In this document: one piece after another, positions 2,301 through 15,274 of the stretch
Layout of the letters: the number at the start of each line of letters is the position of its first letter
How positions within the stretch are numbered: the stretch's first letter is position 1
Assembly: GCA_037381445.1 (NCBI GenBank)
Contig: JARRQT010000048.1
Coordinates: 1 to 16,068, forward strand
Reading direction: 5' to 3'
Length of the DNA stretch: 16,068 nt
DNA from: Calditrichia bacterium
Lineage (GTDB): Bacteria; Calditrichota; Calditrichia; RBG-13-44-9
The notes under the pieces: model-generated
The model's input: the letters and a program-made list of their open reading frames with translations, nothing else
Told to the model about the DNA's origin: nothing
Database searches by the model: none
Translations under genes and position numbers: made by a program

Positions 2301-3731
2301 ATGGCAACACCTACCTTCTATCCTTTAATCCACAATGAGTGGGTAAAAACTTCTAAGTCTCAAAAAATTAAGAATCCATATAACGGGAAAACCGTCGCAA
2401 AAGTGTACATGGCGGAAGGCGATTTTCTGGAAATGGCCATCGAGAGCGCTCAAAAGGGGTATCAGGTTTCATGCCAGCTTTCCAGTTATGACCGCTATCA
2501 TCTGCTGATGAAAATTGCAGCGGGGATTGAAAAACGCAAAGATGAACTGGCACAGACTATTCTGGAAGAAAGCGGCAAACCCATCCATTTCGCTCAAAAT
2601 GAGGTCGAGCGCTCAGTTTTAACATTTACCTGGGCCGCCGAGGAAGCCCGTCGGATAAAGGGTGAGCTATTGCCGCTGGACATCGCGCCTCAGACGCGTG
2701 GATATTTCGGGATATCCCGGCGCTTTCCCGTGGGGGTTATTTTGGGCATTACGCCATTTAATTTCCCGCTCAATCTGGTGGCGCATAAGATAGCGCCCGC
2801 CATCGCCAGCGGAAATTCCATTCTGCTGAAACCCGCCTCCGCGACGCCTGTGACCGCCGTAAAACTGGGAGAAATCCTCAAACAGGCGGGTGTTCCCGCG
2901 GGAACCGTCAATATTATTCCCACTAATGCGAAGGAAGCGCAGAATATGGTAAAGGATGGCCGCATCAAAAAGCTCACCTTCACGGGAAGCGCGGATGTGG
3001 GGTGGTTCCTGAAATCCCTGGCCGGGAAGAAATCCGTTACGCTGGAACTGGGAGGTAATGCAGGCTCAATTGTGGAATCCGACGCCCATCCCGATGAAAT
3101 AATTCCCCGGCTGGTGCTGGGAGCCTTTGCCTACGCGGGCCAAGTCTGCATCTCGGTACAGCGCATTTATGTCCAAGAATCATTGTTTGACGCATTCATT
3201 CAGAAATTTGCGGATGAAACGGCAAAAAGTGCCATCTATGGCGATCCCAAATATGATAAAACCGTAATCGGCCCCATGATTAGCACAGATGCTGCAAAGC
3301 AGGCGGAAAGCTGGATTCGGGATGCTGTTAAAGAAGGCGCGAAAATATTGATTGGCGGGAAGAGGGATGGTAATATACTGGAACCAACCATTTTGACGAA
3401 TACGCAGACGTACATGAAGGTCATTTCTGAAGAGATTTTCGCGCCGGTCGTTTCCATCGAACCATACAATGAATTTTCGGATGCCATTAAAATGATCAAC
3501 AATTCCTATTACGGATTGCAGGCCGGCGTATTTACCAACGATTTCAAAAAGATACAGCAGGCTTATGCCCAACTGGAGGTCGGGGGCGTTATCATCAATG
3601 ATTACCCGACTTTCCGCATCGACCCTATGCCCTATGGGGGGACCAAGGACAGCGGCATCGGCCGGGAAGGGATCCGCTATGCAATGGAGGAGATGACCGA
3701 GCTTAAACTTTTAGCGATAAAGGGACAATAG
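2301..3731 (+). CDS. NAD(P)-dependent aldehyde dehydrogenase (ALDH family 21 / lactaldehyde dehydrogenase-like clade; substrate not assignable)
   Basis: ITPFNFPLNL, LKPA, FTGS, catalytic Glu in LELGGN, catalytic Cys in AGQVCISVQR, EEIFAP, MPYGGTKDSGIGREG. SD GGAGG at 2290-2294. Confidence 0.95.
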   Translation: MATPTFYPLIHNEWVKTSKSQKIKNPYNGKTVAKVYMAEGDFLEMAIESAQKGYQVSCQLSSYDRYHLLMKIAAGIEKRKDELAQTILEESGKPIHFAQNEVERSVLTFTWAAEEARRIKGELLPLDIAPQTRGYFGISRRFPVGVILGITPFNFPLNLVAHKIAPAIASGNSILLKPASATPVTAVKLGEILKQAGVPAGTVNIIPTNAKEAQNMVKDGRIKKLTFTGSADVGWFLKSLAGKKSVTLELGGNAGSIVESDAHPDEIIPRLVLGAFAYAGQVCISVQRIYVQESLFDAFIQKFADETAKSAIYGDPKYDKTVIGPMISTDAAKQAESWIRDAVKEGAKILIGGKRDGNILEPTILTNTQTYMKVISEEIFAPVVSIEPYNEFSDAIKMINNSYYGLQAGVFTNDFKKIQQAYAQLEVGGVIINDYPTFRIDPMPYGGTKDSGIGREGIRYAMEEMTELKLLAIKGQ

Positions 3732-4029
3732 TCCGCCGAATGGTTTGAATTGTCACGGGATTTTCTGAACGCCTATATTCCGATGATTAGCAGATCAGTT
3801 GATGAGAGCCTTCAAAAGTCGGAATATCGGGAACCCCCAATGATCTGCCCGGCCTGCCGCTGAAAATTTATTCCCGGATTAGAATCGTTCTTTTGTAATT
3901 CGTAAAAGAAAGAATGCCGGAGAACCGGATAAATCGATCCCGCATAATTTTTGTAGTAAAAACCCTACAGAAAATTCTCCACAAACCACAAAAATACATT
4001 GGTTATTTTATTTTTGGCACAATTTGGTC

Positions 4030-4058
4030 TTGACTCGTAACATTTAAGAACCTATATT
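4030..4058 (+). promoter_or_regulatory. sigma70-type promoter of the cold-shock gene
   Basis: TTGACT (4030-4035), 17 nt, TATATT (4053-4058), with AT-rich sequence upstream. Implies a start near 4065 and a ~100-nt 5' UTR, typical of csp genes. Confidence 0.7.
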
Positions 4059-4166
4059 TTATTAGGTTGTGGATATTTTCTCTCCATCAATTTTATAAAT
4101 TAAAATCCACACGCCAGACTTGATGGAGAGGATAGTTTATTGGTTTTAGTGGAGGTATCCGTATTT

Positions 4167-4373
4167 ATGCTCACTGGTACTGTCAAATGGTTTAACGAAA
4201 ACAAGGGATGGGGTTTTATCGTCCCGGACGATGGTGGGGATGATGTATTTGTGCATTACTCAGCGATTCAGGAGGAAGGGTACAAAACCCTGAAAGAGGG
4301 TCAGAAGGTCCGCTATGAGTTGAAACTGGGCAAAAATGGTAAATACCAGGCTAATGAGGTTCTCAAGGGTTAA
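4167..4373 (+). CDS. cspA: Cold-shock domain protein (CspA family, 68 aa; paralogue identity not resolvable)
   Basis: [18 protein letters not shown]...[23 protein letters not shown] with RNP1 (KGWGFI) and RNP2 (VFVHY). SD GGAGGT at 4151-4156 supports ATG 4167 rather than TTG 4140. Confidence 0.97.
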
Positions 4374-4398
4374 GGTTTGGCATCATCTCATCTCTTCG

Positions 4399-4432
4399 AT
4401 CCCCGGTTTCATGGTTGAAGCCGGGGATTTTT
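4399..4432 (+). terminator. Intrinsic terminator after csp
   Basis: ATCCCCGGTTTCA (4399-4411), loop TGGT, TGAAGCCGGGGAT (4416-4428): 13-bp stem with one G.U on the + strand followed by a T run. Lies between convergent genes; no U-tract on the minus strand. Confidence 0.85.
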
Positions 4433-4449
4433 ACAATATATGGCTAAAC

Positions 4450-5562
4450 CTATTCAGTAGATAACTGGAACATCATGATTCTATTGTTGCCGGTATCCGC
4501 CACATATACAGTTTGATCCTCGATAAAGGGAGTCACCGCAATCCCCTTGGGATTATTAAATTGTCTGGGACCGGAACCAGCTGCCAGAACAGACTGCATC
4601 TGAAGTCCAGATGGCGCGAAGCGGTAAAAACCCGGCAAGTGTGAATTTCCGCCGGCATCAACCAAAAATATAAAACCCTGGCGGTCGATCGCCACATCTT
4701 CCAGATTCCAGAATTTATCAGTGCTGTAGATGTCAGTCCCGATTAAGGCGGTGTTAGGTGTCAGTATCGGCTGACCTTCAAACATCCTGGTTGTAACGTA
4801 CTGATATTTAAAAGCGTTAAACAGCAGGCTTGTTCGCCCGGTATGGGTGAACATGAACGCTTTTGTGTCCTCCGAACGGGAAGAAACATCAAGATATTGC
4901 TCTCGAAGCGAAACAATGGATGTGGGAACGATCACGGAATACAAACCGGTTCCATTTACAAAAAGGGGAACTGGTCCCTTTAAAGTATTGTCAGTATTAA
5001 AATCGTAGACAAAACTGAATTCCAGATAATTGGTACTGCTGTCGGCAACATCAACCACCGTCACATAATATTCCGAACCATTATAGACTGTAATACCGGT
5101 AAACTCTCGCGAAGGCTCACTGCTCTGTTCAAAAACAGTCTCGATAGGCGCCGCACCGATATTATGGTTCACCGCCACCTGATCGATTTTGAAAACACGG
5201 TTTGTTTTATTCACAACCAGAAGTTCCAGCTTGTCGTTCTGGGTGATTGCCTCGGGATGTTCTATAAATTGCGAGACTCCCTGAACTGCCCCGCCCAAAT
5301 CCAACATGACTATCCGGTTATTATCCGTATCACAGACATAAATAAAATTATCAACACCCACATAGATATCAGATGGGTGATTGAAAGAATATCCATGCCC
5401 GGCATCCAGTATCGGATTTATAAGATTATATACCTGCTTGCCAATATTTCCGTACAGATCTTCCCCGCTGGGTACCGTTGGCAAAGGATATTTATCATGA
5501 GAACATCCAATGACTAAAATCATCGCGATAAAAACAAAAAAAGTAATTACTTTCTGCATCAT
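4450..5562 (-). CDS. NHL-repeat (beta-propeller) lipoprotein
   Basis: Signal peptide with lipobox VIGC (Cys20). NHL repeats FNHPSDIYVGVDNFIYVCDTDNNRIVML, FWNLEDVAIDRQGFIFLVD, FNNPKGIAV...VYVADTGNNRIMMF. AGAGGA upstream; 11 nt from the PorV-family gene. Confidence 0.85.
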   Translation of the reverse strand: MMQKVITFFVFIAMILVIGCSHDKYPLPTVPSGEDLYGNIGKQVYNLINPILDAGHGYSFNHPSDIYVGVDNFIYVCDTDNNRIVMLDLGGAVQGVSQFIEHPEAITQNDKLELLVVNKTNRVFKIDQVAVNHNIGAAPIETVFEQSSEPSREFTGITVYNGSEYYVTVVDVADSSTNYLEFSFVYDFNTDNTLKGPVPLFVNGTGLYSVIVPTSIVSLREQYLDVSSRSEDTKAFMFTHTGRTSLLFNAFKYQYVTTRMFEGQPILTPNTALIGTDIYSTDKFWNLEDVAIDRQGFIFLVDAGGNSHLPGFYRFAPSGLQMQSVLAAGSGPRQFNNPKGIAVTPFIEDQTVYVADTGNNRIMMFQLSTE

Positions 5563-5573
5563 ACAACATTCCT

Positions 5574-6563
5574 CTAAAATTGAATATGAGCGGCAAACCT
5601 GTTAACATAACCCAGACGGCCAAAATTTGAATAGGCATAATCCAGCCGGAAATCCGTGAATGAAACCGGCAGATGAAGCCCAAAACCAAGAGAATAGTTT
5701 TCTTCCGCACGGCCGGTAATGTATCCGCCCCGCAGGGCAAACATCTTTTTCCACCAATACTCCAGACCAAGGTTGATATTTTCGCTGTTATCATTCGGAT
5801 GGTTTAGCTGTATTGAGCTGGTGAGAGTATGCTGATCATTTTCAAACAGCTCGGTCGCCACGCCGATTCTAAACATGATAGGCGGTGAAAACTCCTGAAA
5901 GCTATTGACCGTAACCTTTTCATTATCCAGGTTCTTATAGGTAAAACTGCCGGTAGGGGACATGTTCTGACCGAAATTGGTGACAGCCACCGCAAAGCGC
6001 GTCGATTTCCAACCGGTTTTATAATACGTTCCCAGATCAAAAAGAACCGCGCGCATGCTCAGGACATCCAGCGTTTCCTGCATATATTTTACGGATAATC
6101 CAAAACTGAATTTCTCGGTCATATTCCGGGCATAACTGAGGCTGAAAAGCGCATCGGAATATCCAAAATATCTTCCCGTTCCCAGCGGCTGGAGCTCCGT
6201 GGTCTCCTTCATATCATCGGTATGAAGATAGGTAATCGCAAAACCCAGGGTGTTTGCCGGATTGAGATGATAAACCAGACCCGCATATTCCAGTCTCACA
6301 TCCACCAGCCATTGGGTTGAGGTAAAAAACACTTCATTCTTATCAAATTGGGAAATGCCTGCCGGATTCCAGTACAGCGCCTCGGCATCGTTGGCTACAG
6401 CCACATAGGCCTGTCCCATGGCGACCGCCCGCGGGCCGATCCCAATCTTCAGGAATTGGGCGGCTGAAGTCCCGGTGCGCTGCCCACCCAGATTTGGTAT
6501 TAGCTGGGCGAATAAAGAAAATGTTGTCAATAGAACCATTAATATTATGCTGACAATTCTCAT
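5574..6563 (-). CDS. PorV/PorQ-family (UPF0164, FadL-like) outer-membrane beta-barrel
   Basis: Signal peptide; hallmark N-terminal motif AQFLKIGIGPRAVAMGQAYVAVANDAEALYWNPAG; C-terminal ALRGGY...GFGL...LDYAY; terminal Phe. SD AGAGGA. Confidence 0.88.
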   Translation of the reverse strand: MRIVSIILMVLLTTFSLFAQLIPNLGGQRTGTSAAQFLKIGIGPRAVAMGQAYVAVANDAEALYWNPAGISQFDKNEVFFTSTQWLVDVRLEYAGLVYHLNPANTLGFAITYLHTDDMKETTELQPLGTGRYFGYSDALFSLSYARNMTEKFSFGLSVKYMQETLDVLSMRAVLFDLGTYYKTGWKSTRFAVAVTNFGQNMSPTGSFTYKNLDNEKVTVNSFQEFSPPIMFRIGVATELFENDQHTLTSSIQLNHPNDNSENINLGLEYWWKKMFALRGGYITGRAEENYSLGFGLHLPVSFTDFRLDYAYSNFGRLGYVNRFAAHIQF

Positions 6564-6576
6564 TTCTTCCTCTGAA

Positions 6577-9429
6577 TTAAAATTCTACAGATAAACCAAA
6601 CCTGATATGTCTGGGTGCTTTATATCTTGCCGGATTAAAGGGAAACGGATCGGAAATCGGGTAGAAAAGATCCGGATAAAGGGGATCATTCCAGCTTATG
6701 GGAGTTGGATCGCCATACTGGTATGCATCGCCCGTTACACTATTTATGATATCAGGACTTTTGTAATTAAAGAGATTCGTCACTTCAATGCTGAAGATAT
6801 ACCTTAATCCCTTTAATTCGAAAAATTTCCGGATGCTCAGGTCTGCCCACTGCCAGTATTTCCCAAGCTCGCTATACCTTTTTGTCTGATCCTCCACCTG
6901 CGTGTAGACCGGTCGTCCGTCTTCCGGCCGATCATACTGGAAAACAACCGGGGTGTAACGCTTGCCTGCCATTCCGAACCAGCGGAAATTAATGTTCATA
7001 TCCTCCAAAAATCTTATGCCAAACAGCCGGGGTCCTTCTCCTCTCAGCACCCGCCAGTTCATATTCATCTGGAGCTGCCAGGGCCGGTCCCAAACGGCAT
7101 ATGTTTCCTTGATGGGTTCTTCATCAATGCTTCCGTTGGCTACCAGCAAACCGACATCCGGCGAAGATGATTTTGTGGTAGTGATGGAATATGAACCGCT
7201 GACATTTCCGGTAAAATGCTTTCCGATACGGGTCTTATATTCCGCTTCTATTCCGCGGGAACGGGCATAATCCAGGTTAAGATAAAAAATAGCCGATCCG
7301 ATCCGCGGGATCCCTACCACAGAAGTGGTCTGGACATAATCGAAAATATCCTTATAATAACTGGTAACGCTGACGACATCGTTTTCAGTAAACTTATGCC
7401 GGATTCCCAGTTCATAGATTACCGAGGTTTCGGGATTAAGATTGGGATTCCCGAATTTCTGATAAGCCGATTTTGAACTGCTTCCGCTGAGCTTGGCGTA
7501 CACAAACTGCGGTTTGGGACGTTTGGAAAAATGTCCGTAATTGAAAAACAACATCTCGTTGTCGGAGATCGGATGCGATACACCCAGACGCGGCATCAGG
7601 CGCATCTTAAAGCGTTCGCCGAAAAGTTTAAAGGTGTTATCCTTGTATTGCTGCCGCATGGCATCGGTCAGCAGATTTGTGGTATCTTCGATGGCCCTGT
7701 CCACAAATTTTCCCGGGGCCCAGTAATCCAGGCGCAGACCGGTATTCAGATAGAATCCCTCAAACTTGATATCGTCCTGCAAATAAAAAGCACCGTCGGC
7801 GGGATAAACTCTGTAAATATCCTGACTGGAACCGAATCCTCCTTCCAGCCACGGATCGATGATATCGACCATCTGCATCTCTTTATAAGAAGATTCGAAT
7901 CCGCCCTTCAGCGTATGAATATTTCCGATGCGGGTGGTCAAGTCTCCTTTGAGCGTATACCATTCGATAAAGTGATCATGCCAGAAGGTGGCGTTCCCGT
8001 AATCGATAAATCCGTCGCCCGGCACCACCCTTATCTTACTTGTATCACTGCCTGGCGTATAATAATCCACCGGCAGGCGCGTTACATCCACCGGCCTCAT
8101 ATAATCCGTCCAGGGCAATCCGTTATAATCGGACCTCAGGTGCGCCCAGTACTGGCTGAGCCGTAATTCGTAAAACGTGGTTTTATTTAAAGTGTGAATC
8201 CAGCGGAGTGAAATTTGTTCATTGTCATGCGTATAGGTATTGAACAGATCAAGATTTTTGGAATATTCATAAGGGAAACCGGGTCCGGGTTCCACATATT
8301 CCAGATTGGTCTGCAAAGACTGTTTATTCTGGTTGATGGCAATGGAGCGGTTATAAGAAAATTCCAGGGAGTGGGTTGGGTCGATATTCCAGGTGATCTT
8401 GGCAAGCCCTGACCAGTTATTGTCTTGCCGGGGCGCCAGGGAAGTTGGCGTCAGCAGGTCCCTGCCAAAAAGCGATAGCTGGGGAGAGATAGATGAATAT
8501 AGCTGATGGGCGGTACTGCGTGTATAATCGTCCGAAAGCTGAGAGTAAAAATTCACGAAAAAATACATTTTGCCGGGTATTTTTAATCCTAACGGTTTCA
8601 GAAGGTTATTGGTAATCGGTTCGGGACCGCCCAGATTGAATTCATAGACATCAGAATTAAAGCTCCAGCTTTTATTCCGAAAAACGCCGAAATTATCGGT
8701 TTTGTAGGAAAGGAAACCGGTGAAATGATCTCCACCCGATTTCGTCTTCACATTAATGATACCCGATGTTGCCTGTCCGTATTCTGCCCGGAATCCCCCG
8801 GTAATGACATCGACCTCCTCGATGGCATTGGCGCTGATATTTAGACCAAAACCGGTGCCGGACATCGGATCCTGAACTGAGATTCCATCCAGCATATACT
8901 GCGCTTCGTAGGTCCGACCGCCGCGAATGTGAATTTCGTTGTCCTGCTCCACCACACCAACCTGAGTCTTTACAACTGCCTTGGCGTCCGATAAAATTTT
9001 ATTGGAAATATCCTCACTGGTGACAGTCCTTCGTGTGCTGGTTTCATCCAGCTCAATCAGCGGTTTTTCTCCTACAACAACAATTTCCTGTCCGAGGGCA
9101 AGTGCCGTAGACTCCATCTTCAGGTTGACGGTTTCCGTTTGTCCGGCCTCAACTTTAACGCCTGTCTTTTTAACCACTTTGTACCCGATATAACTCAGCT
9201 CCATCGTGTACTCGCCGGGATTTACATTTCCAATTACATAGAAACCATCCTGATCGGTAGAGGCACCCAGATAGGTTCCCGTAATAACAATGTTGACACC
9301 TATCAAAGGCTCATCCGTTTGCGCATCGGTTATGATCCCCCGAATAGTCCCCGTGCTGTGAGTCTGTGCGAAGCCCGACTGACCGAACAGAAGTATGAGC
9401 AGACTAAATAATATGTAAACTTTTTTCAT
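6577..9429 (-). CDS. TonB-dependent receptor with N-terminal carboxypeptidase-regulatory-like domain
   Basis: Signal peptide MKKVYILFSLLILLFGQSGFA; GTIRGIITDAQTDEPLIGVNIVI; plug motifs IHIRGGR and IEEVDVITGGFRAEYGQATSGIINVKTKSG; barrel motifs GLRLD, PRLGVS, GNPNLNPE, NLFN; C-terminal PRHIRFGLSVEF. Alternative start at 9456. Confidence 0.95.
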   Translation of the reverse strand: MKKVYILFSLLILLFGQSGFAQTHSTGTIRGIITDAQTDEPLIGVNIVITGTYLGASTDQDGFYVIGNVNPGEYTMELSYIGYKVVKKTGVKVEAGQTETVNLKMESTALALGQEIVVVGEKPLIELDETSTRRTVTSEDISNKILSDAKAVVKTQVGVVEQDNEIHIRGGRTYEAQYMLDGISVQDPMSGTGFGLNISANAIEEVDVITGGFRAEYGQATSGIINVKTKSGGDHFTGFLSYKTDNFGVFRNKSWSFNSDVYEFNLGGPEPITNNLLKPLGLKIPGKMYFFVNFYSQLSDDYTRSTAHQLYSSISPQLSLFGRDLLTPTSLAPRQDNNWSGLAKITWNIDPTHSLEFSYNRSIAINQNKQSLQTNLEYVEPGPGFPYEYSKNLDLFNTYTHDNEQISLRWIHTLNKTTFYELRLSQYWAHLRSDYNGLPWTDYMRPVDVTRLPVDYYTPGSDTSKIRVVPGDGFIDYGNATFWHDHFIEWYTLKGDLTTRIGNIHTLKGGFESSYKEMQMVDIIDPWLEGGFGSSQDIYRVYPADGAFYLQDDIKFEGFYLNTGLRLDYWAPGKFVDRAIEDTTNLLTDAMRQQYKDNTFKLFGERFKMRLMPRLGVSHPISDNEMLFFNYGHFSKRPKPQFVYAKLSGSSSKSAYQKFGNPNLNPETSVIYELGIRHKFTENDVVSVTSYYKDIFDYVQTTSVVGIPRIGSAIFYLNLDYARSRGIEAEYKTRIGKHFTGNVSGSYSITTTKSSSPDVGLLVANGSIDEEPIKETYAVWDRPWQLQMNMNWRVLRGEGPRLFGIRFLEDMNINFRWFGMAGKRYTPVVFQYDRPEDGRPVYTQVEDQTKRYSELGKYWQWADLSIRKFFELKGLRYIFSIEVTNLFNYKSPDIINSVTGDAYQYGDPTPISWNDPLYPDLFYPISDPFPFNPARYKAPRHIRFGLSVEF

Positions 9430-9442
9430 TGCAGAACCTGAT

Positions 9443-10840
9443 TTATTTAAATACATCGTTTAAAATCACATCGAAGAAATCATCAAGATTATTATTTCCA
9501 TTCAACTGATGCAGAGGTGTTGCTGAAAAGACAAAATCGTACTGGCCGGTATTATCATTTCTTCCCAGAATGACGAACAGAGGATCAACCGGCGGACTGC
9601 TGGGATCATCAAAACGATACAAGGGAACGGCACCTGCCTTGGGGACCAGGGATTTTACCCCGGCAAAAAACTTGGAAACCTTCAGATCGGGCAGTGCAGG
9701 CAAATCCGGGAAAATTGTATTAAAATCGGTTTGAGGCAGAAATTGATTTCCCGGAAAACAACGGTAATCCCCTTCCAGAGATTTCACCGGAGAAAACGCC
9801 AGGGGGTCGCCCTGAGTGCCGAAACTCTCTGTAAACATTGTCGTGTAAATGATCTTTCCGCCGTTATTCAAAAATGCGGGAATGGCCACCTGGGCCGCAA
9901 TAAAATGTTCATCAGCTTCCTGGGAAATATCAGTATACCAGATTACCCTGTCGAAAAGACTGATCGTCTCCTTGAATTGTTCCGTTGATGCGGGAAACAG
10001 ATCCTCGATGTTCCAGTAGCTGAAATTTTCTCCCATGGGGACAACAACATTATTCATCATCTTTTTATAATAGGCGTCAGGGCTGCCACTTACCGAAGAC
10101 TCCACCTGAAAATCGTCGATAAGAAGATACCGGCCTTTGGGCGCTTTCACATGCCAGAGCTTCGCAGGATTCTGGGGCATCCTGATCGTGGGACTTTTGG
10201 CACCGGCGATATCTATCGCACGGATAGAAAAAGAATGATCCCCCGGCGTCAAACCGTCCTGTTCATTCAGGGTCAGAGATCGCTGATAGCCCGGCAGTGT
10301 TTTCCAGTTTGCGGAATCACCGTCCAGCGCATACTCAAAGCGGTCAATCGTGTTATCTCCGTCAATATCGGAAGCGGTCCAGATAAACGTCGCAACGGTA
10401 AAAGTCGTATCCGGGATTCTGCTGACCACCGTCCAATTTATTGTCGGGGCCGTATTTTTAATCGGAAATCTTTGTACCGCAGGACTTGGATCTTCGGCGC
10501 CGTCATCGTCCACGGCTTTTATCTGGAAGACGTAGGTCGTGTCGTTGCCCAGAATTTCCAGCGGGAAAGTCTTCGTTCTGTCCTTTGTAAACTCCCAATC
10601 CGCCGGCGCGGGATTTTCTTCCCAGGTGTAATAGAAGCCAATTACGACGCCATCCGGGTCCCGTCCGTCCCAGGATATTTTTTGAATGCTGGCGGTCTGG
10701 TTCAAGGTATCTTTGGTGGAAATAAAAACATCCGTTTCCGGGGGAAGGTTTGCGTTCAGACCTCCCTTATCATTTTGGGAACATCCCCACAAAAAAACCG
10801 TAACCAGAGCGAAAAATGACAATCTTTTTAAGAGCTTCAT
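9443..10840 (-). CDS. Uncharacterised lipoprotein: two Ig/FN3-like repeats plus a C-terminal alpha/beta domain
   Basis: Lipobox LWGC. Repeat 1 NLPPET..ISWDGRDPDG..GFYY..YVFQIKAVDDDG; repeat 2 NTAPTI..FIWTASDIDG..RFEY..HSFSIRAIDIAG. C-terminal LLIDD..FDRVIWYT..FLNNGGKIIY. ATG 10840 chosen; GTG 10852 is possible. Confidence 0.8.
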   Translation of the reverse strand: MKLLKRLSFFALVTVFLWGCSQNDKGGLNANLPPETDVFISTKDTLNQTASIQKISWDGRDPDGVVIGFYYTWEENPAPADWEFTKDRTKTFPLEILGNDTTYVFQIKAVDDDGAEDPSPAVQRFPIKNTAPTINWTVVSRIPDTTFTVATFIWTASDIDGDNTIDRFEYALDGDSANWKTLPGYQRSLTLNEQDGLTPGDHSFSIRAIDIAGAKSPTIRMPQNPAKLWHVKAPKGRYLLIDDFQVESSVSGSPDAYYKKMMNNVVVPMGENFSYWNIEDLFPASTEQFKETISLFDRVIWYTDISQEADEHFIAAQVAIPAFLNNGGKIIYTTMFTESFGTQGDPLAFSPVKSLEGDYRCFPGNQFLPQTDFNTIFPDLPALPDLKVSKFFAGVKSLVPKAGAVPLYRFDDPSSPPVDPLFVILGRNDNTGQYDFVFSATPLHQLNGNNNLDDFFDVILNDVFK

Positions 10841-10984
10841 ATAATCGATCACTTTGAAATTATGTTGAAAATCTATATAACTCTATAGTCTATTTACCAA
10901 GAAAAAATCCTGTAAAAACTCAAATTTTCCCGCTTCCCCAACTCCAACTGCGGATTACTTAAAAATTGCAGGGCTGCCTGAGAA

Positions 10985-11026
10985 CAACCGGAGAGCCTCT
11001 CCAGAAGGAACGGACTCTCCGGATTG
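10985..11026 (-). terminator. Strong stem-loop just downstream of the OB-fold gene (weak terminator or 3' stabiliser)
   Basis: Perfect 8-bp arms CCGGAGAG (10988-10995) and CTCTCCGG (11015-11022), extended by G.U pairs valid on the minus-strand RNA; followed only by a broken U-tract (UUGUUCU). Confidence 0.6.
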
Positions 11027-11039
11027 CAAATTTATGCTG

Positions 11040-13055
11040 CTACTTGATTAAGATCATTTTCCGGGTCATAGAGAAATTTTTGCCTTCCAGGCGGTAGAAG
11101 TAAATTCCACTGCCCATTTGGACACCATGATCGTCCCGGCCATTCCAGCGTACCTGGTAATTACCGGGAGAAACGATGTTGTTGAAAAGCGTTCTGATCC
11201 TCTGTCCCAGAACATTGTAAACCGCCAGAGACACCTGTCCCCGGGAAGGCACGGTGAAATGAATATTGGTCACCGGATTGAACGGATTGGGATAGTTCTG
11301 TTCCAGCGTAAAGCTTTTCGCTATCGGATTATGACTTTCCTGAATATCGGACACATGATCCACCACATCATTGGTATCGCGGGGGAGTATTTTATAATTA
11401 GCGTAGCTGTAATAGTGAATTCCTGTCAATTCGCCGATTGTATCATCTTTCTGAAAGGTCGAGTCCAGATTCCCATTAAATGCCGTCATGGCATCATCCA
11501 CACGGATGCCGCCTGTACCGTCATCGATAACAAATTCACCGAAATTCCCGGAAGGATCCGGAAAAGGATTGGTCACCGTCAGATTCTGTACCTTGATAAG
11601 GACGCTTTCATAAGCTTCGGCATCGTCGCCGCCGGTGGTGATATCACCGGTATTTACCAGAACAGGCTCAAACGGGTAATCCTGAGAGACCACTTCATAC
11701 GAGGTAATATCCTCAAGGCGAGTCACGCCATAATCCTCCTGAACCGTACCGGTGATCCTGACCCAATCTCCTTTTACCGGTTTATGATCAGGATCATAAA
11801 CCCAGATGGCATGCCAGGCGCTGTCTTTTTCCTGGATATAGTAGTTATTCACCCAGTCTGTGGTATCAACCGTCACAACACCTTCCAGCGTCACTTCATC
11901 ATACCGGAAAGGTGAACTTCCTTCTTCATAACCCCAGGGATATTGAACATCCTTGATGTTTAACCCTTCGTCGCGCACCACATATTGATAGATGAAGGTG
12001 GCCGTATCGCCCGGTACCTGGGAAAAGTCCTGTTCATCGTCTTCGGCATAGATAAAATAGCGCACATGGGAATTATTGGCCTGCGCAGGAATAACAGCCG
12101 AGAAAGTGGTATCGGTATCAGCGGTCATGTCTATGCCAACAAAATCCCCGTCATTTACACTGTAGTAGACTTTTGCAACTTGAACTACGGTGTTATCCTT
12201 AATTTTTGCGGATACCGTCACCTCATCGGTGGAGAGGGGCACACCAGGCTCTCTGGCGATACTGGAGGTGACCGGCGGGAATGATAATACTTCCACATCA
12301 TTATCATCGCGGGGATTGATCGAGGAAGCTTCAGCGCCAAGGTCTCTCACAAAACCGGTAACATTGACACGTGTGCCATTAACAGGCCAGTCATAGGTCC
12401 CGTCATCAAACTGGTAACGGAAATATCCAAAATAATCATCAATGGATCCCTGACCGGTCCCATCGGTAATGATTGCCTGGTTGCTCGAGGCATTATTATT
12501 GGTAATTCGTGCATCATCCACTCTCACCAGCATGGATTCCCACTGTTCCGCAAGAGCTTTGGTTGCCAGTTGATCCAGTGTCAGAACTTTGGGATCGGGC
12601 AAGGGATTTCCTGCCGAAACAACATCGACCGGAACCAATTCATTTTTGCGGGTTAATAACGCCAGCTGAGTCAAACCGGCATATGTTTCCAGCACACCCG
12701 TAAAATAGGCGATATCACCTGTCTGCAAATACTGGAAATTGGTGTTCACTGCGAAAGTATCATTCTGAATTACAAAAAAACCGGACCAAGGTTCGCCCAG
12801 ACGATCCGGGTCACTGGCAAAGCAAGCCCAACGTGCACCAACCCACAAACCCCGGACATCGTGCATCACCAGTGCTTTTACAACCACCGTATCTCCCAAA
12901 AACGCAGTCTCTTCATCTGTGGTGGTCGGATTTTCAACATACTGCAGATCGTAGATAGATACAGTGTCATATGTGGCAGTCGTCTGCGCGCCGGCAGAAA
13001 ATGCAACACTGAGCACCAGCGCCAGTGCAAACAATACCGTAATTTTCCTGAACAT
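11040..13055 (-). CDS. Secreted protein with duplicated OB-fold modules, a central Ig-like domain and a T9SS type A / FlgD-Ig C-terminal sorting domain
   Basis: Signal peptide ending AGA-Q; internal duplication (SIYDLQY/NIKDVQY, AEQWESMLVRV/AEAYESVLIKV, ITDGTG/IDDGTG, INPRDDNDV/ILPRDTNDV); CTD FTLEQNYPNPFNP..VYNVLGQRIRTL..WNGRDDHG..SGIYFYRL..TRKMILIK. Strong SD TAAGGAGG. Confidence 0.88.
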   Translation of the reverse strand: MFRKITVLFALALVLSVAFSAGAQTTATYDTVSIYDLQYVENPTTTDEETAFLGDTVVVKALVMHDVRGLWVGARWACFASDPDRLGEPWSGFFVIQNDTFAVNTNFQYLQTGDIAYFTGVLETYAGLTQLALLTRKNELVPVDVVSAGNPLPDPKVLTLDQLATKALAEQWESMLVRVDDARITNNNASSNQAIITDGTGQGSIDDYFGYFRYQFDDGTYDWPVNGTRVNVTGFVRDLGAEASSINPRDDNDVEVLSFPPVTSSIAREPGVPLSTDEVTVSAKIKDNTVVQVAKVYYSVNDGDFVGIDMTADTDTTFSAVIPAQANNSHVRYFIYAEDDEQDFSQVPGDTATFIYQYVVRDEGLNIKDVQYPWGYEEGSSPFRYDEVTLEGVVTVDTTDWVNNYYIQEKDSAWHAIWVYDPDHKPVKGDWVRITGTVQEDYGVTRLEDITSYEVVSQDYPFEPVLVNTGDITTGGDDAEAYESVLIKVQNLTVTNPFPDPSGNFGEFVIDDGTGGIRVDDAMTAFNGNLDSTFQKDDTIGELTGIHYYSYANYKILPRDTNDVVDHVSDIQESHNPIAKSFTLEQNYPNPFNPVTNIHFTVPSRGQVSLAVYNVLGQRIRTLFNNIVSPGNYQVRWNGRDDHGVQMGSGIYFYRLEGKNFSMTRKMILIK

Positions 13056-13144
13056 AATTCCTCCTTATGGATTAGTTGAATATTTTAAGTGGAGAACTTA
13101 ATTAATCACCAAATTAATTGGGTCCCTTAAGTTGCTTTCTTCAT

Positions 13145-15274
13145 TTATTTTATGACAACGAATTTTCCTTTATATATATCACCTGTATCCAGATCTTTTA
13201 CGGTGAAGAGATACAATCCTGTTGCAATGGCCTGGTCGCTCTCGGTCACCAGATCCCAGGCATGCTCACCTCCCGGGAATATGGTGTTGCCCGCACCATA
13301 TCTCTGAAACCACTTAATCCCCTGGCCATTATAGGTGTCACCATGATGAGTAAAACTATCCACCATATCCCCCGCCAGCGTATAGATCCGGATTTCACTG
13401 TTGAGCGGCAGATTATAAAAGTAGATTTTTCTTTCTCTCTCGAATCCACCATCCCACAGGGCATTCGCTTTATAGGGATTGGGATAAACGCCAATCTCCC
13501 GGCTTTCAGCAGGAGCTCTTGCCGGACTTCCGGGACTGACCACTACCACATTCTGAAGCTTGCTGCTTTCCAGACTGGGCAGTCTGAGTTTTGTATCTCC
13601 GCTGTCAAAAGCCGTAACGGCAAAGGCATATTGCCAGCCATTGTGTAAATTATCAATTTCCAATTTATAGGTATATACAATGGTATCCATTAAACCCGTT
13701 GTCGGATTTGGAACCATCTCGGTTATTGGTTCGGCCATACGGATGCTGTCCAGTCCGGTGTCATAAAACAAACCGTCCTTACGATCATATTCTCTGATTA
13801 ATCCCATCTGCCCGTAAATACCGGTATTTGAAATGTCATTGCCAAGAAATGAGCGGTATATCCTAAAACCTTCAAAATCCTTATTCTTTGAGATTAAATC
13901 GATTGACTTTTCAGCACGGGTGTCCCAATAGAGAGTTACCCTCTGATTGCCCGGTACCACCTTCAGGAGAGGAGGTGTAGGCGGCGTGGGCAGCACATAG
14001 CGGTCAAGTTTTCCGTTTCCGTTCACGTCTTCCGTTGAATCGGTTCCCACATAATCCAGGATTCCGTTACGGTTCGAGTCTTCACCGTAATAAGCCCGAT
14101 ATGCCCAGGCGGTGTTTTCATAAAGGTGCTGTTTGGCAAATTCATCATCAATGGTGGACGGATTATAACCGGCTTTTTTGCCGCACACGAATGCAAACAC
14201 CACATTCACCGAAGAATCCGGAGGAATAACGGAAAAAGGACCAGTGGAGATCAGGCTCATGCGGTTGCCGGGCGTTTCAAACAAGCTGGCCTGATAATAA
14301 TTTTCCGGCATCGATGATTCCATGCGGGCGTAGCGGCTGGCCTCATCGGCAGGAGCGCGGTCTTCATCGGCGTCGCCGCCGGAAAACAGCCACCAGTTAT
14401 AGGTAATGTCTCCTGAATAGTTGATATCTGTTTTTATCGGGTCGGCACCCAGAAAGGCCATGGATACATAACTGTCAGTAAATCCCGGATCGCCGTCATA
14501 ATCATAACAGTAGACCATTTTGGTGGAGTCACGATTCACATATCCGATGCCGGCATGCAGGTAAAAAGGCGATCCGACCCGCGGAGGCGTGATGTTTACA
14601 TTTCGGACCACCAGGTCCGCCCAGAGGCCTACATAAACATCTTTCAGGGTATCTTTCCAGACATTCTTAATGGTATAATTAAAAATCACAAAGGCGTCAG
14701 CAAAGGGATAGTTCCAGGCATAGGTTTCCAGGTGGACAGCAATACCCAGGGGAGTATGGTTTGGAATGGGAATGCTGCTTCCGGGAACGAAGATATTGGT
14801 ATCGGAGAAATCCGCAATAAAATCCTGGTGGCTGATCGCCTCTGGTGAATAGTATTTATTCTCCTCAAGGGAAGACCGCTCAATTATGCGGTCCGAGGGA
14901 TTAGCAGTATTGGTAAATTCAAAATTGGCCGAAGCACCGACTCCCAGCCGGGGTGTATTGAATGCGCCCGTAGTCACCCTGGGACCGGTTGAAGTTTGGG
15001 CGCCGCCCCACAAACCGCCCACAAACAGGTGTTCAATGCCCGAACCTTTCGGATATTCGCAGGAAGGCTGATCAACCGGTGATTGCTGCCGGAATCCATC
15101 CCCAAATATCCCATAATTGCTGATCGTAATGCCAATATTACCGGCGCTGGTAAATTTTGAATCGTCATCCACTGAGGGCTTGGGAAGAAATGGCGTATTT
15201 CCGGAATTCTGACTTTGTGAAAAAGAAAACGTTATCCAAAGAAGGACTAAAAGGAGAGAAGCATAATTCTTCAT
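13145..15274 (-). CDS. Secreted 709-aa protein of unknown function with FN3-like domain and atypical T9SS-like CTD
   Basis: Signal peptide; N-terminal domain GNIGITISNYGIFG..CEYPKGSG..LFVGGLW; FN3-like PPTPP..VTLYWD..FEGFRIYRS..NGWQYAFAVTAFD; CTD-like VYPNPY..IYFYNLP..IRIYTLAGDMV..WDL..ATGLYLFTV..GKFVVIK. Confidence 0.85.
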   Translation of the reverse strand: MKNYASLLLVLLWITFSFSQSQNSGNTPFLPKPSVDDDSKFTSAGNIGITISNYGIFGDGFRQQSPVDQPSCEYPKGSGIEHLFVGGLWGGAQTSTGPRVTTGAFNTPRLGVGASANFEFTNTANPSDRIIERSSLEENKYYSPEAISHQDFIADFSDTNIFVPGSSIPIPNHTPLGIAVHLETYAWNYPFADAFVIFNYTIKNVWKDTLKDVYVGLWADLVVRNVNITPPRVGSPFYLHAGIGYVNRDSTKMVYCYDYDGDPGFTDSYVSMAFLGADPIKTDINYSGDITYNWWLFSGGDADEDRAPADEASRYARMESSMPENYYQASLFETPGNRMSLISTGPFSVIPPDSSVNVVFAFVCGKKAGYNPSTIDDEFAKQHLYENTAWAYRAYYGEDSNRNGILDYVGTDSTEDVNGNGKLDRYVLPTPPTPPLLKVVPGNQRVTLYWDTRAEKSIDLISKNKDFEGFRIYRSFLGNDISNTGIYGQMGLIREYDRKDGLFYDTGLDSIRMAEPITEMVPNPTTGLMDTIVYTYKLEIDNLHNGWQYAFAVTAFDSGDTKLRLPSLESSKLQNVVVVSPGSPARAPAESREIGVYPNPYKANALWDGGFERERKIYFYNLPLNSEIRIYTLAGDMVDSFTHHGDTYNGQGIKWFQRYGAGNTIFPGGEHAWDLVTESDQAIATGLYLFTVKDLDTGDIYKGKFVVIK

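Follow-up and report, generated by a model that had tools for sequence, protein, structure and literature searches.

SusC/SusD pairs and utilisomes belong to the polysaccharide-utilisation loci of Bacteroidota. A six-gene locus with a TonB-dependent transporter, ddbABCDEF, has been described in Bacteroides thetaiotaomicron (bioRxiv 10.1101/2025.03.18.642099 = PMC12478041). In the secretion system called type IX (T9SS), some proteins retain an uncut tail on a cognate barrel, namely PorU on PorV, PorZ on PorQ and type B cargo on PorP/SprF, according to the available part of a 2023 review (PMC10202324), which calls T9SS-type tails restricted to Bacteroidota. Here we analyse 16,068 nucleotides (nt) from a Calditrichia bacterium (contig JARRQT010000048.1, assembly GCA_037381445.1; hereafter the window). 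It makes up all of contig C48, from a 5.1 Mb genome that is 92% complete and whose nearest relatives are labelled Calditrichota. It carries six genes, A to F, encoding two secreted proteins (A and B), two lipoproteins (C and F), a TonB-dependent transporter (D) and a barrel of the PorV/PorQ family (E). A first-pass annotation, made from the sequence alone, had proposed that T9SS-exported substrate-binding proteins are held here beside the transporter by a dedicated PorV-like barrel. We conclude that the operon is a real variant of TonB-dependent polymer uptake, apparently undescribed, and add two points that go beyond that first reading: a likely nucleic-acid substrate, and the multiplicity of the cassette (17 in this genome).

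The locus resembles ddb in having six genes with a TonB-dependent transporter among them, and in that genes of the EEP family adjoin the operon in some relatives. DdbD, a DUF5689 protein, resembles the HIN domains of p202; B is modelled with four OB folds and matches HIN loosely, and at E<=0.01 DUF5689 (PF18942) is found in four of 47 B orthologues and not in B itself. There are three nucleases in ddb and none in this locus, whereas the T9SS-tailed surface partners and PorV-family barrel found here are not mentioned for ddb in the available text of that study. Moreover, A has no counterpart described there, and the likeness between D and DdbC is one of transporter type. With SusC/SusD loci the operon shares multi-copy TonB transporter cassettes that have a variable surface partner and lipoproteins, many of them among carbohydrate enzymes. 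It differs from them in three ways: D scores too low for SusC, a search of the genome detected no SusD, and the conserved partner, a T9SS cargo with a beta-sandwich, is predicted to have a barrel and not a lipid as its anchor. As in the PorU-PorV, PorZ-PorQ and type B pairs, a PorV-like barrel is co-encoded with, and predicted to bind, a cargo with an uncommon tail; however, the pairs in the available part of the review serve the secretion machine or adhesins, whereas E would serve beside a TonB importer and is one of 17 copies in the genome. The operon likely works like ddb and, as to layout, like SusC/SusD, and by the features compared is a member of neither. Our literature search, which had most subscription papers outside its coverage, found no description of the cassette, and it goes unmentioned in the available parts of the papers on the genomes of Caldithrix abyssi and Melioribacter roseus.

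Results

All six genes lie on the minus strand. The spacing of 11-13 nt noted at first pass for the last four holds when D is started at its second ATG (9429), giving gaps of 13 nt (C-D), 13 nt (D-E) and 11 nt (E-F); the longest C and D open reading frames (ORFs) overlap by 14 nt, and 89 nt separate A from B. Searching species genomes with A yielded 80 orthologous loci. Conservation of the gene order, which the first-pass annotation had left as a check on its proposal, is clear: the order A-B-C-D-E-F is kept in 35/35 loci holding all six genes and broken in none of the 80, and is beyond chance. Complete loci span four phyla, Calditrichota, Fidelibacterota (Marinimicrobia), KSB1 and Ignavibacteriota, with orthologue identities of 48-79% for D and 45-73% for E. 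An A orthologue occurs as a single copy in 36/86 genomes of the host phylum, so that cultured members may allow direct tests, and in 43/151 genomes of the KSB1 phylum; the operon is therefore widespread but accessory. An essential envelope role was rejected, as only 22 of 53 near-complete genomes of the phylum hold an A orthologue. Sixteen sampled E orthologues form a single branch together with E (100/100). The Fidelibacterota E orthologues (loci L003 and L006) nest within Calditrichota (99/94) in a tree lacking a rooted clade test, a possible transfer. At one locus a thermolysin-family protease with a T9SS-type tail lies between B and C (L075:15799-18927); it may have been inserted by chance, or the substrate at that locus may be a peptide. 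An mltD-like gene upstream in 11 loci labelled Ignavibacteria/Bacteroidota was judged to be genomic context.

The signal peptide or lipobox assigned at first pass to each product was accepted as accurate, on inspection by eye and an N-terminal helix in the structure models of A and B rather than on a predictor; the lipobox cysteine of C (Cys20) is invariant in 46/46 orthologues, and the lipobox pattern of F is present in 28/37. We likewise agree that there is no recognisable enzyme, since none of the six products has an enzyme family match at E<=0.01. D is a TonB-dependent receptor (PF00593, PF07715) that scores 81.3 bits with TIGR04056, under the SusC cut-off of 368.25. The genome contains seven TonB domains. 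The absence of a SusD-like gene from the locus was borne out: no SusD family match was found in any of 46 C orthologues or in F, C being composed of Fn3 domains and F of NHL repeats. The C-terminal half of C resembles DUF4960 and xanthan-lyase fragments in the ESM Atlas, with no SusD-named neighbour. Moreover, searches of the genome with PF07980 and PF14322 gave no SusD, while controls for both gave matches; SusD_RagB matches occur in 31/86 genomes of the host phylum.

E belongs to the PorV/PorQ family (NF033709, 222.1 bits against a cut-off of 90) and lies under both equivalog cut-offs (PorV, 85 against 250; PorQ, 96 against 220). In the whole genome, 24 genes score above the PorV-family cut-off, and 17 cassette barrels, E included, group apart from its canonical PorV on contig C46 (96/94). 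A PorV paralogue is thus co-encoded with the transporter, as had been claimed. The claim of two T9SS C-terminal domain (CTD) proteins holds for B, whose tail is a type A CTD (TIGR04183, 39.9 against 23; PF18962 in 47/47 orthologues at E<=0.01). It does not hold in the same sense for A, whose tail forms a class of its own, matching no CTD family above cut-off (best PorZ, 18 bits) and neither TIGR04183 nor PF18962. Profiles of the two tails run on the genome assigned T9SS-type tails to 154 proteins, 17 of A type and 137 common; two A relatives fell in neither class. A PorV-family gene directly follows 14/17 A-type-tail proteins, compared with 6/137 common-tail proteins. Of the 18 transporters closest to D, 17 likewise have such a gene at most four genes away, the 18th being on a 1.7 kb fragment. 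The genome holds 17 cassettes of importer, odd-tailed cargo and PorV-family gene, usually in the order transporter, A-type cargo, barrel, with the A relative between the other two. Many lie among carbohydrate enzymes (GH66, PL9/GH28/GH88/pectinesterase, GH9, GH2/GH130, GH3, GH97), one lies among cell-wall recycling genes and another beside an M6 peptidase. Two tandem cassettes on contig C12 (L090, L100) are flanked by GH3/beta-lactamase, SIS-domain, amidase, NAGPA and NlpC/P60 genes, which suggests uptake of cell-wall fragments.

Structure prediction places A on E with a score of 0.91, against 0.00 for the best control, at least 97% contact agreement between runs and a partner predicted local distance difference test (pLDDT) value of at least 81. 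The mark used for this score was reached by 116/157 solved pairs and 2/215 mismatched pairs. The predicted interface involves mainly A residues 595-709 (the last 115), plus 443-444, 477-478 and 544-547. The proposal that the exported cargo is held by a dedicated barrel therefore survives for A as a prediction; B has the common tail, and only A looks like E cargo. The model of A has a pLDDT of 84. Residues 30-429 best match 9ju0 (Z 19.0, root-mean-square deviation (rmsd) 3.4, 255 aligned, 7% identity), a beta-supersandwich of glycoside hydrolases and phosphorylases like that of GH94, GH116 and GH174 enzymes. In most of the top matches we take this fold to be an N-terminal domain ahead of a catalytic barrel. 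The all-beta domain of A is probably Fn3-like. Neither a profile of A nor the single B sequence matched the sequences of solved structures, and the ESM Atlas returned only unnamed clusters for A.

Of the core T9SS genes that the first-pass annotation had named for checking, SprA is above cut-off in a 2110-amino-acid (aa) frame of the genome (and in 81/86 genomes of the host phylum), and PorU is on contig C219 (487 against 420); GldK and GldM are taken up in the Discussion. The genome combines 154 T9SS-type tails, in a phylum with near-universal SprA, with a GldK that was not found. Next after the canonical PorV on C46 comes an inactivated metalloprotease, M6-like and T9SS-dependent (L097:1249-4254), that exceeds the NF052323 cut-off and has a weakly PorZ-like tail. 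C46:13848 was considered as PorU and rejected, being an M6-like inactive protease.

The model of B (pLDDT 88) has the order OB, OB, Ig, OB, OB, tail. By sequence B is related to the OB regions of two sets of proteins, the ExeM/NucH nucleases (E 1e-18) and the nuclease-type entries 9sf8/9sf9 (E 2e-5). Its predicted OB folds match those of RPA (Z 10.9, rmsd 2.1, 79 aligned), MCM (Z 11.0, rmsd 1.6, 79 aligned) and tRNA-synthetase anticodon domains, with Z 9.5-11.2 across the three. The top structural matches (Z up to 13.7) pair the Ig domain with a deiminase and amylases. No catalytic domain was found in B, and KSB1 orthologues carry an extra lamin-tail domain. Among long proteins with the B module, 3/8 carry an EEP domain and 5/8 do not. 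The module was found in two further proteins of the genome, one encoded beside endonuclease I and the other beside a ComEA-HhH gene. In the 16 other cassettes no B module was found, nor was a nuclease family found among the 104 neighbouring proteins scanned. On contig C212 a secreted endonuclease I directly follows an OB-module protein, and both have a T9SS tail (L118:3500-5901). On contig C20 a 1373-aa secreted protein with several B-type OB modules and an unusual tail (L117:6430-10548) is followed by its own PorV-family barrel (5455-6336; 81.5 against a cut-off of 90) and an 859-aa ComEA-type helix-hairpin-helix protein (2845-5421), and these three would form a second barrel-paired, DNA-flavoured unit.

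Secreted EEP-family genes with a T9SS tail recur beside orthologous operons. In KSB1 such a gene lies within 2.5 kb of F in 9/16 genomes with both (five co-oriented, four convergent), and an EEP-CTD gene is present in 16/43 genomes with A and 7/108 without; these counts, like those for the riboswitch below, overstate the association, as kin are not independent. An EEP gene adjoins F in 2/13 Calditrichota genomes with both. In three of eight further KSB1 loci a metallohydrolase-OB-tail protein takes the place of EEP, two of them with DUF5689 above cut-off. Directly after F in three KSB1 genomes is a secreted protein with a CehA/McbA-type metallohydrolase, an OB/DUF5689 module and a T9SS tail (L125:13015-15120, L127:2375-4558, L132:14820-16955), a candidate phosphoesterase or nuclease. 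A scan of 64 flanking proteins, out of 124 cluster representatives, found no recurring glycoside hydrolase. The EEP-family gene of the genome itself sits on another contig (C1), away from the operon. This EEP-CTD gene (L116:870-14459) has dprA about 2 kb away, a comEA-like gene at about 6 kb and a deoxynucleoside kinase at about 5 kb, which may be chance.

When seven sources were scanned with Rfam, one KSB1 locus proved to have a riboswitch of the purine clan ahead of A, with 2'-deoxyguanosine-II (2'-dG-II; RF03165) as the best match (E 6e-14). Across the 151 KSB1-phylum genomes RF03165 has five sites: three lie 119-347 nt before A (57.8, 53.5 and 50.3 bits) and two precede another TonB receptor (61.4 and 54.6 bits), one of the latter adjoining the operon. 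The KSB1 leaders share with the known riboswitch a three-stem purine-clan fold, a G-C junction pair in P1 and a longer J3/1; they differ in that the known riboswitch is described from Bacteroidetes, in the available part of PMC8872408, and the operon copies are sub-threshold. Genes described downstream of 2'-dG-II in the same source include endonuclease I and ComEC. The G-C junction pair and a 4-nt J3/1 are present in 5/5 copies and the C51-equivalent in 3/5, one of the three operon copies having U at that position. A TTGACT promoter-like hexamer precedes each copy, and two copies have directly downstream a stretch of 10 nt that is perfectly complementary to the binding pocket. Searches of the 86 host-phylum genomes gave only two weak matches (23-25 bits), away from A; those of 73 sources gave only the two training copies, and those of 16 further loci none. 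The two riboswitches outside the operon (L106:4876-13626 and L110:2978-11971) lead an OMP_b-brl_4 TonB receptor, and a receptor of this type is also directly upstream of A in L062, L128 and L129. Within a few kb after the L106 and L110 receptors are genes that we take to be acylating aldehyde dehydrogenase-like and PduL-like. These could process acetaldehyde from deoxyribose.

The coordinates of the operon are collected in Table 1. The hairpin after B has z<-3 (mononucleotide shuffles) in 46/58 orthologous loci, as against 2/73 after A, 0/44 after C, 2/41 after D and 0/40 after E. It may stabilise or end an A-B transcript, letting A and B exceed the barrels in amount. A G+C-rich hairpin without a U tract also lies directly 3' of F (window 4399-4428, minus strand). 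A scan for promoters and terminators gave no more than chance would (25 against 23.1; 16 against 13.8). Elsewhere in the window, positions 3-1947 hold a gene pair resembling an ABC ATPase and permease (labelled by eye) that is not kept beside the operon. A convergent aldehyde dehydrogenase at 2301-3731, whose top NCBIfam match is lactaldehyde dehydrogenase below cut-off, was rejected as an operon member, as none was found beside other loci.

Table 1. Features of the six-gene operon in the window.
Feature	Coordinates	Open reading frame	Strand	Description
Gene A	13145..15274	15274-13145	-	709 aa secreted; galactose-mutarotase-like beta-supersandwich ~30-429, all-beta domain, atypical T9SS tail ending GKFVVIK; predicted held on barrel E
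Gene B	11040..13055	13055-11040	-	671 aa secreted; four predicted OB folds (two ExeM/YhcR-type pairs), Ig-like domain 259-363, type A T9SS CTD
RNA hairpin directly 3' of B	10984..11027		-	Strong; without clear U tract; recurs in orthologues
Gene C	9443..10840	10852-9443	-	465 aa lipoprotein (Cys20); Fn3-type domains and C-terminal domain like DUF4960/xanthan-lyase fragments
Gene D	6577..9429	9456-6577	-	950 aa TonB-dependent transporter: N-terminal extension, plug, barrel
Gene E	5574..6563	6563-5574	-	329 aa PorV/PorQ-family barrel, cassette-linked group
Gene F	4450..5562	5562-4450	-	370 aa lipoprotein with NHL repeats (beta-propeller type)

Discussion

Taken together, we favour, on balance, a model in which this conserved operon builds an outer-membrane system that captures and imports extracellular DNA or its fragments, with A on E serving D in place of SusD. 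Its parts differ in strength: an import architecture with an anchored partner is highly probable, and nucleic acid is the probable substrate. The model builds on the observed gene content, order, families and pairing of A-type tails with PorV-family genes, and on the predicted A-E interface and B OB folds. A and B would exit through the SprA translocon. A would keep its tail and stay bound on E, like PorU on PorV and PorZ on PorQ, and likely serves the importer D instead of a SusD. B, with its ordinary tail, would be processed like other cargo and bind nucleic acid at the surface, probably via metal ions. Separately encoded secreted nucleases, for which the genome has EEP-family and endonuclease I genes, would cut the DNA, and D would import the pieces with TonB energy, the lipoproteins C and F acting as accessory binders or scaffolds.

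Several observations weigh against this model. There is no nuclease in this locus, and no riboswitch was found either here or elsewhere in this genome. All three operon riboswitches are below the gathering score (50-58 against 60 bits); they occur in 3/43 KSB1 genomes with A, which are near kin, and the five copies show no covariation or compensatory change, being too alike for the test. EEP domains include non-nucleases. Their co-occurrence with the operon is weak in Calditrichota (13/36 genomes with A, 11/50 without), and an EEP gene is found in only 1/22 Ignavibacteriota/Fidelibacterota genomes, on another contig from F. As for B, the second-ranked Foldseek match, a p204 HINab-DNA complex (E 1.3e-7), is loose (TM-score 0.20/0.28, rmsd 17.8). 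B is also acidic (95 D/E against 45 K/R), so that direct DNA binding would probably need metal bridging; nuclease-fused copies of the module are equally acidic. On the export side, the ring protein GldK was not detected in the genome (best 20 bits against 350), and a search for the motor protein GldM gave no match, its control also being silent. PorV-CTD complexes have been solved, and the E-A score may reflect them; it indicates likeness and not binding.

Other observations on the same side point to sugars, and would suit an importer with the same anchored partner that takes up a glycan or glycoconjugate, the OB folds of B binding oligosaccharide or acting as spacers. The fold of A is that of sugar enzymes and points to carbohydrates. 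Carbohydrate enzymes, amylase N-domains among them, are the best matches of the B Ig domain, and CBM56, which that domain also resembles, is found in 17/47 B orthologues. The xanthan-lyase-like tail of C, the carbohydrate enzymes around other cassettes and the long B-module proteins without an EEP domain fit as well. However, no glycoside hydrolase recurs in the flanking proteins scanned; what recurs is EEP-family genes, DUF5689 proteins and a purine-clan riboswitch, and neither the B module nor nuclease families were found, respectively, in the other cassettes and their scanned neighbours. We therefore consider a glycan substrate unlikely.

Were DNA taken up mainly for natural transformation, long DNA would pass to ComEA/ComEC and feeding would be secondary. 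The genome does have ComEC, DprA and ComEA-like genes, and a TonB receptor and DUF5689 pair, encoded by genes related to ddb, is needed for transformation in Riemerella anatipestifer, as cited in the available part of bioRxiv 10.1101/2025.03.18.642099. Yet ComEC is near-universal, with matches in 10/14 control genomes, no competence genes were found beside the operon in the flanks scanned, and a nucleoside-type riboswitch with adjacent EEP genes would fit salvage better; this role seems to us improbable. We give equally little credence to E being only a private export shuttle for A, the release or display of A then not depending on D, and the products of the co-transcribed genes not joining in one complex. 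Bacteroidota do use PorV as a shuttle, according to the available part of the literature, and in this operon A is four genes from E and three from D. Most cassettes, however, are ordered transporter, A-type cargo, barrel, the predicted interface reaches past the tail to A 443-444, 477-478 and 544-547, and PorZ and type B cargo stay at the surface, tails uncut, on the barrels that match them (PMC10202324, available part).

Returning to DNA import with A anchored on E, we tentatively extend it, at somewhat short of even chances, to Fibrobacterota-Chlorobiota-Bacteroidota (FCB) bacteria outside Bacteroidota. In these bacteria the lid of a family of TonB importers would leave through a reduced T9SS and be clipped onto a private PorV-type barrel, and the six-gene member would be a dedicated harvester of extracellular DNA, controlled in one KSB1 lineage by a deoxyguanosine riboswitch. 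If the model is true, several phyla, mostly uncultured, would have a general way of capturing polymers at the outer membrane that is second to, and runs parallel with, SusC/SusD. The model would also give a role to the many PorV paralogues of these genomes, of which there are 24 above cut-off here, and provide a candidate route for the use of extracellular DNA in these phyla.

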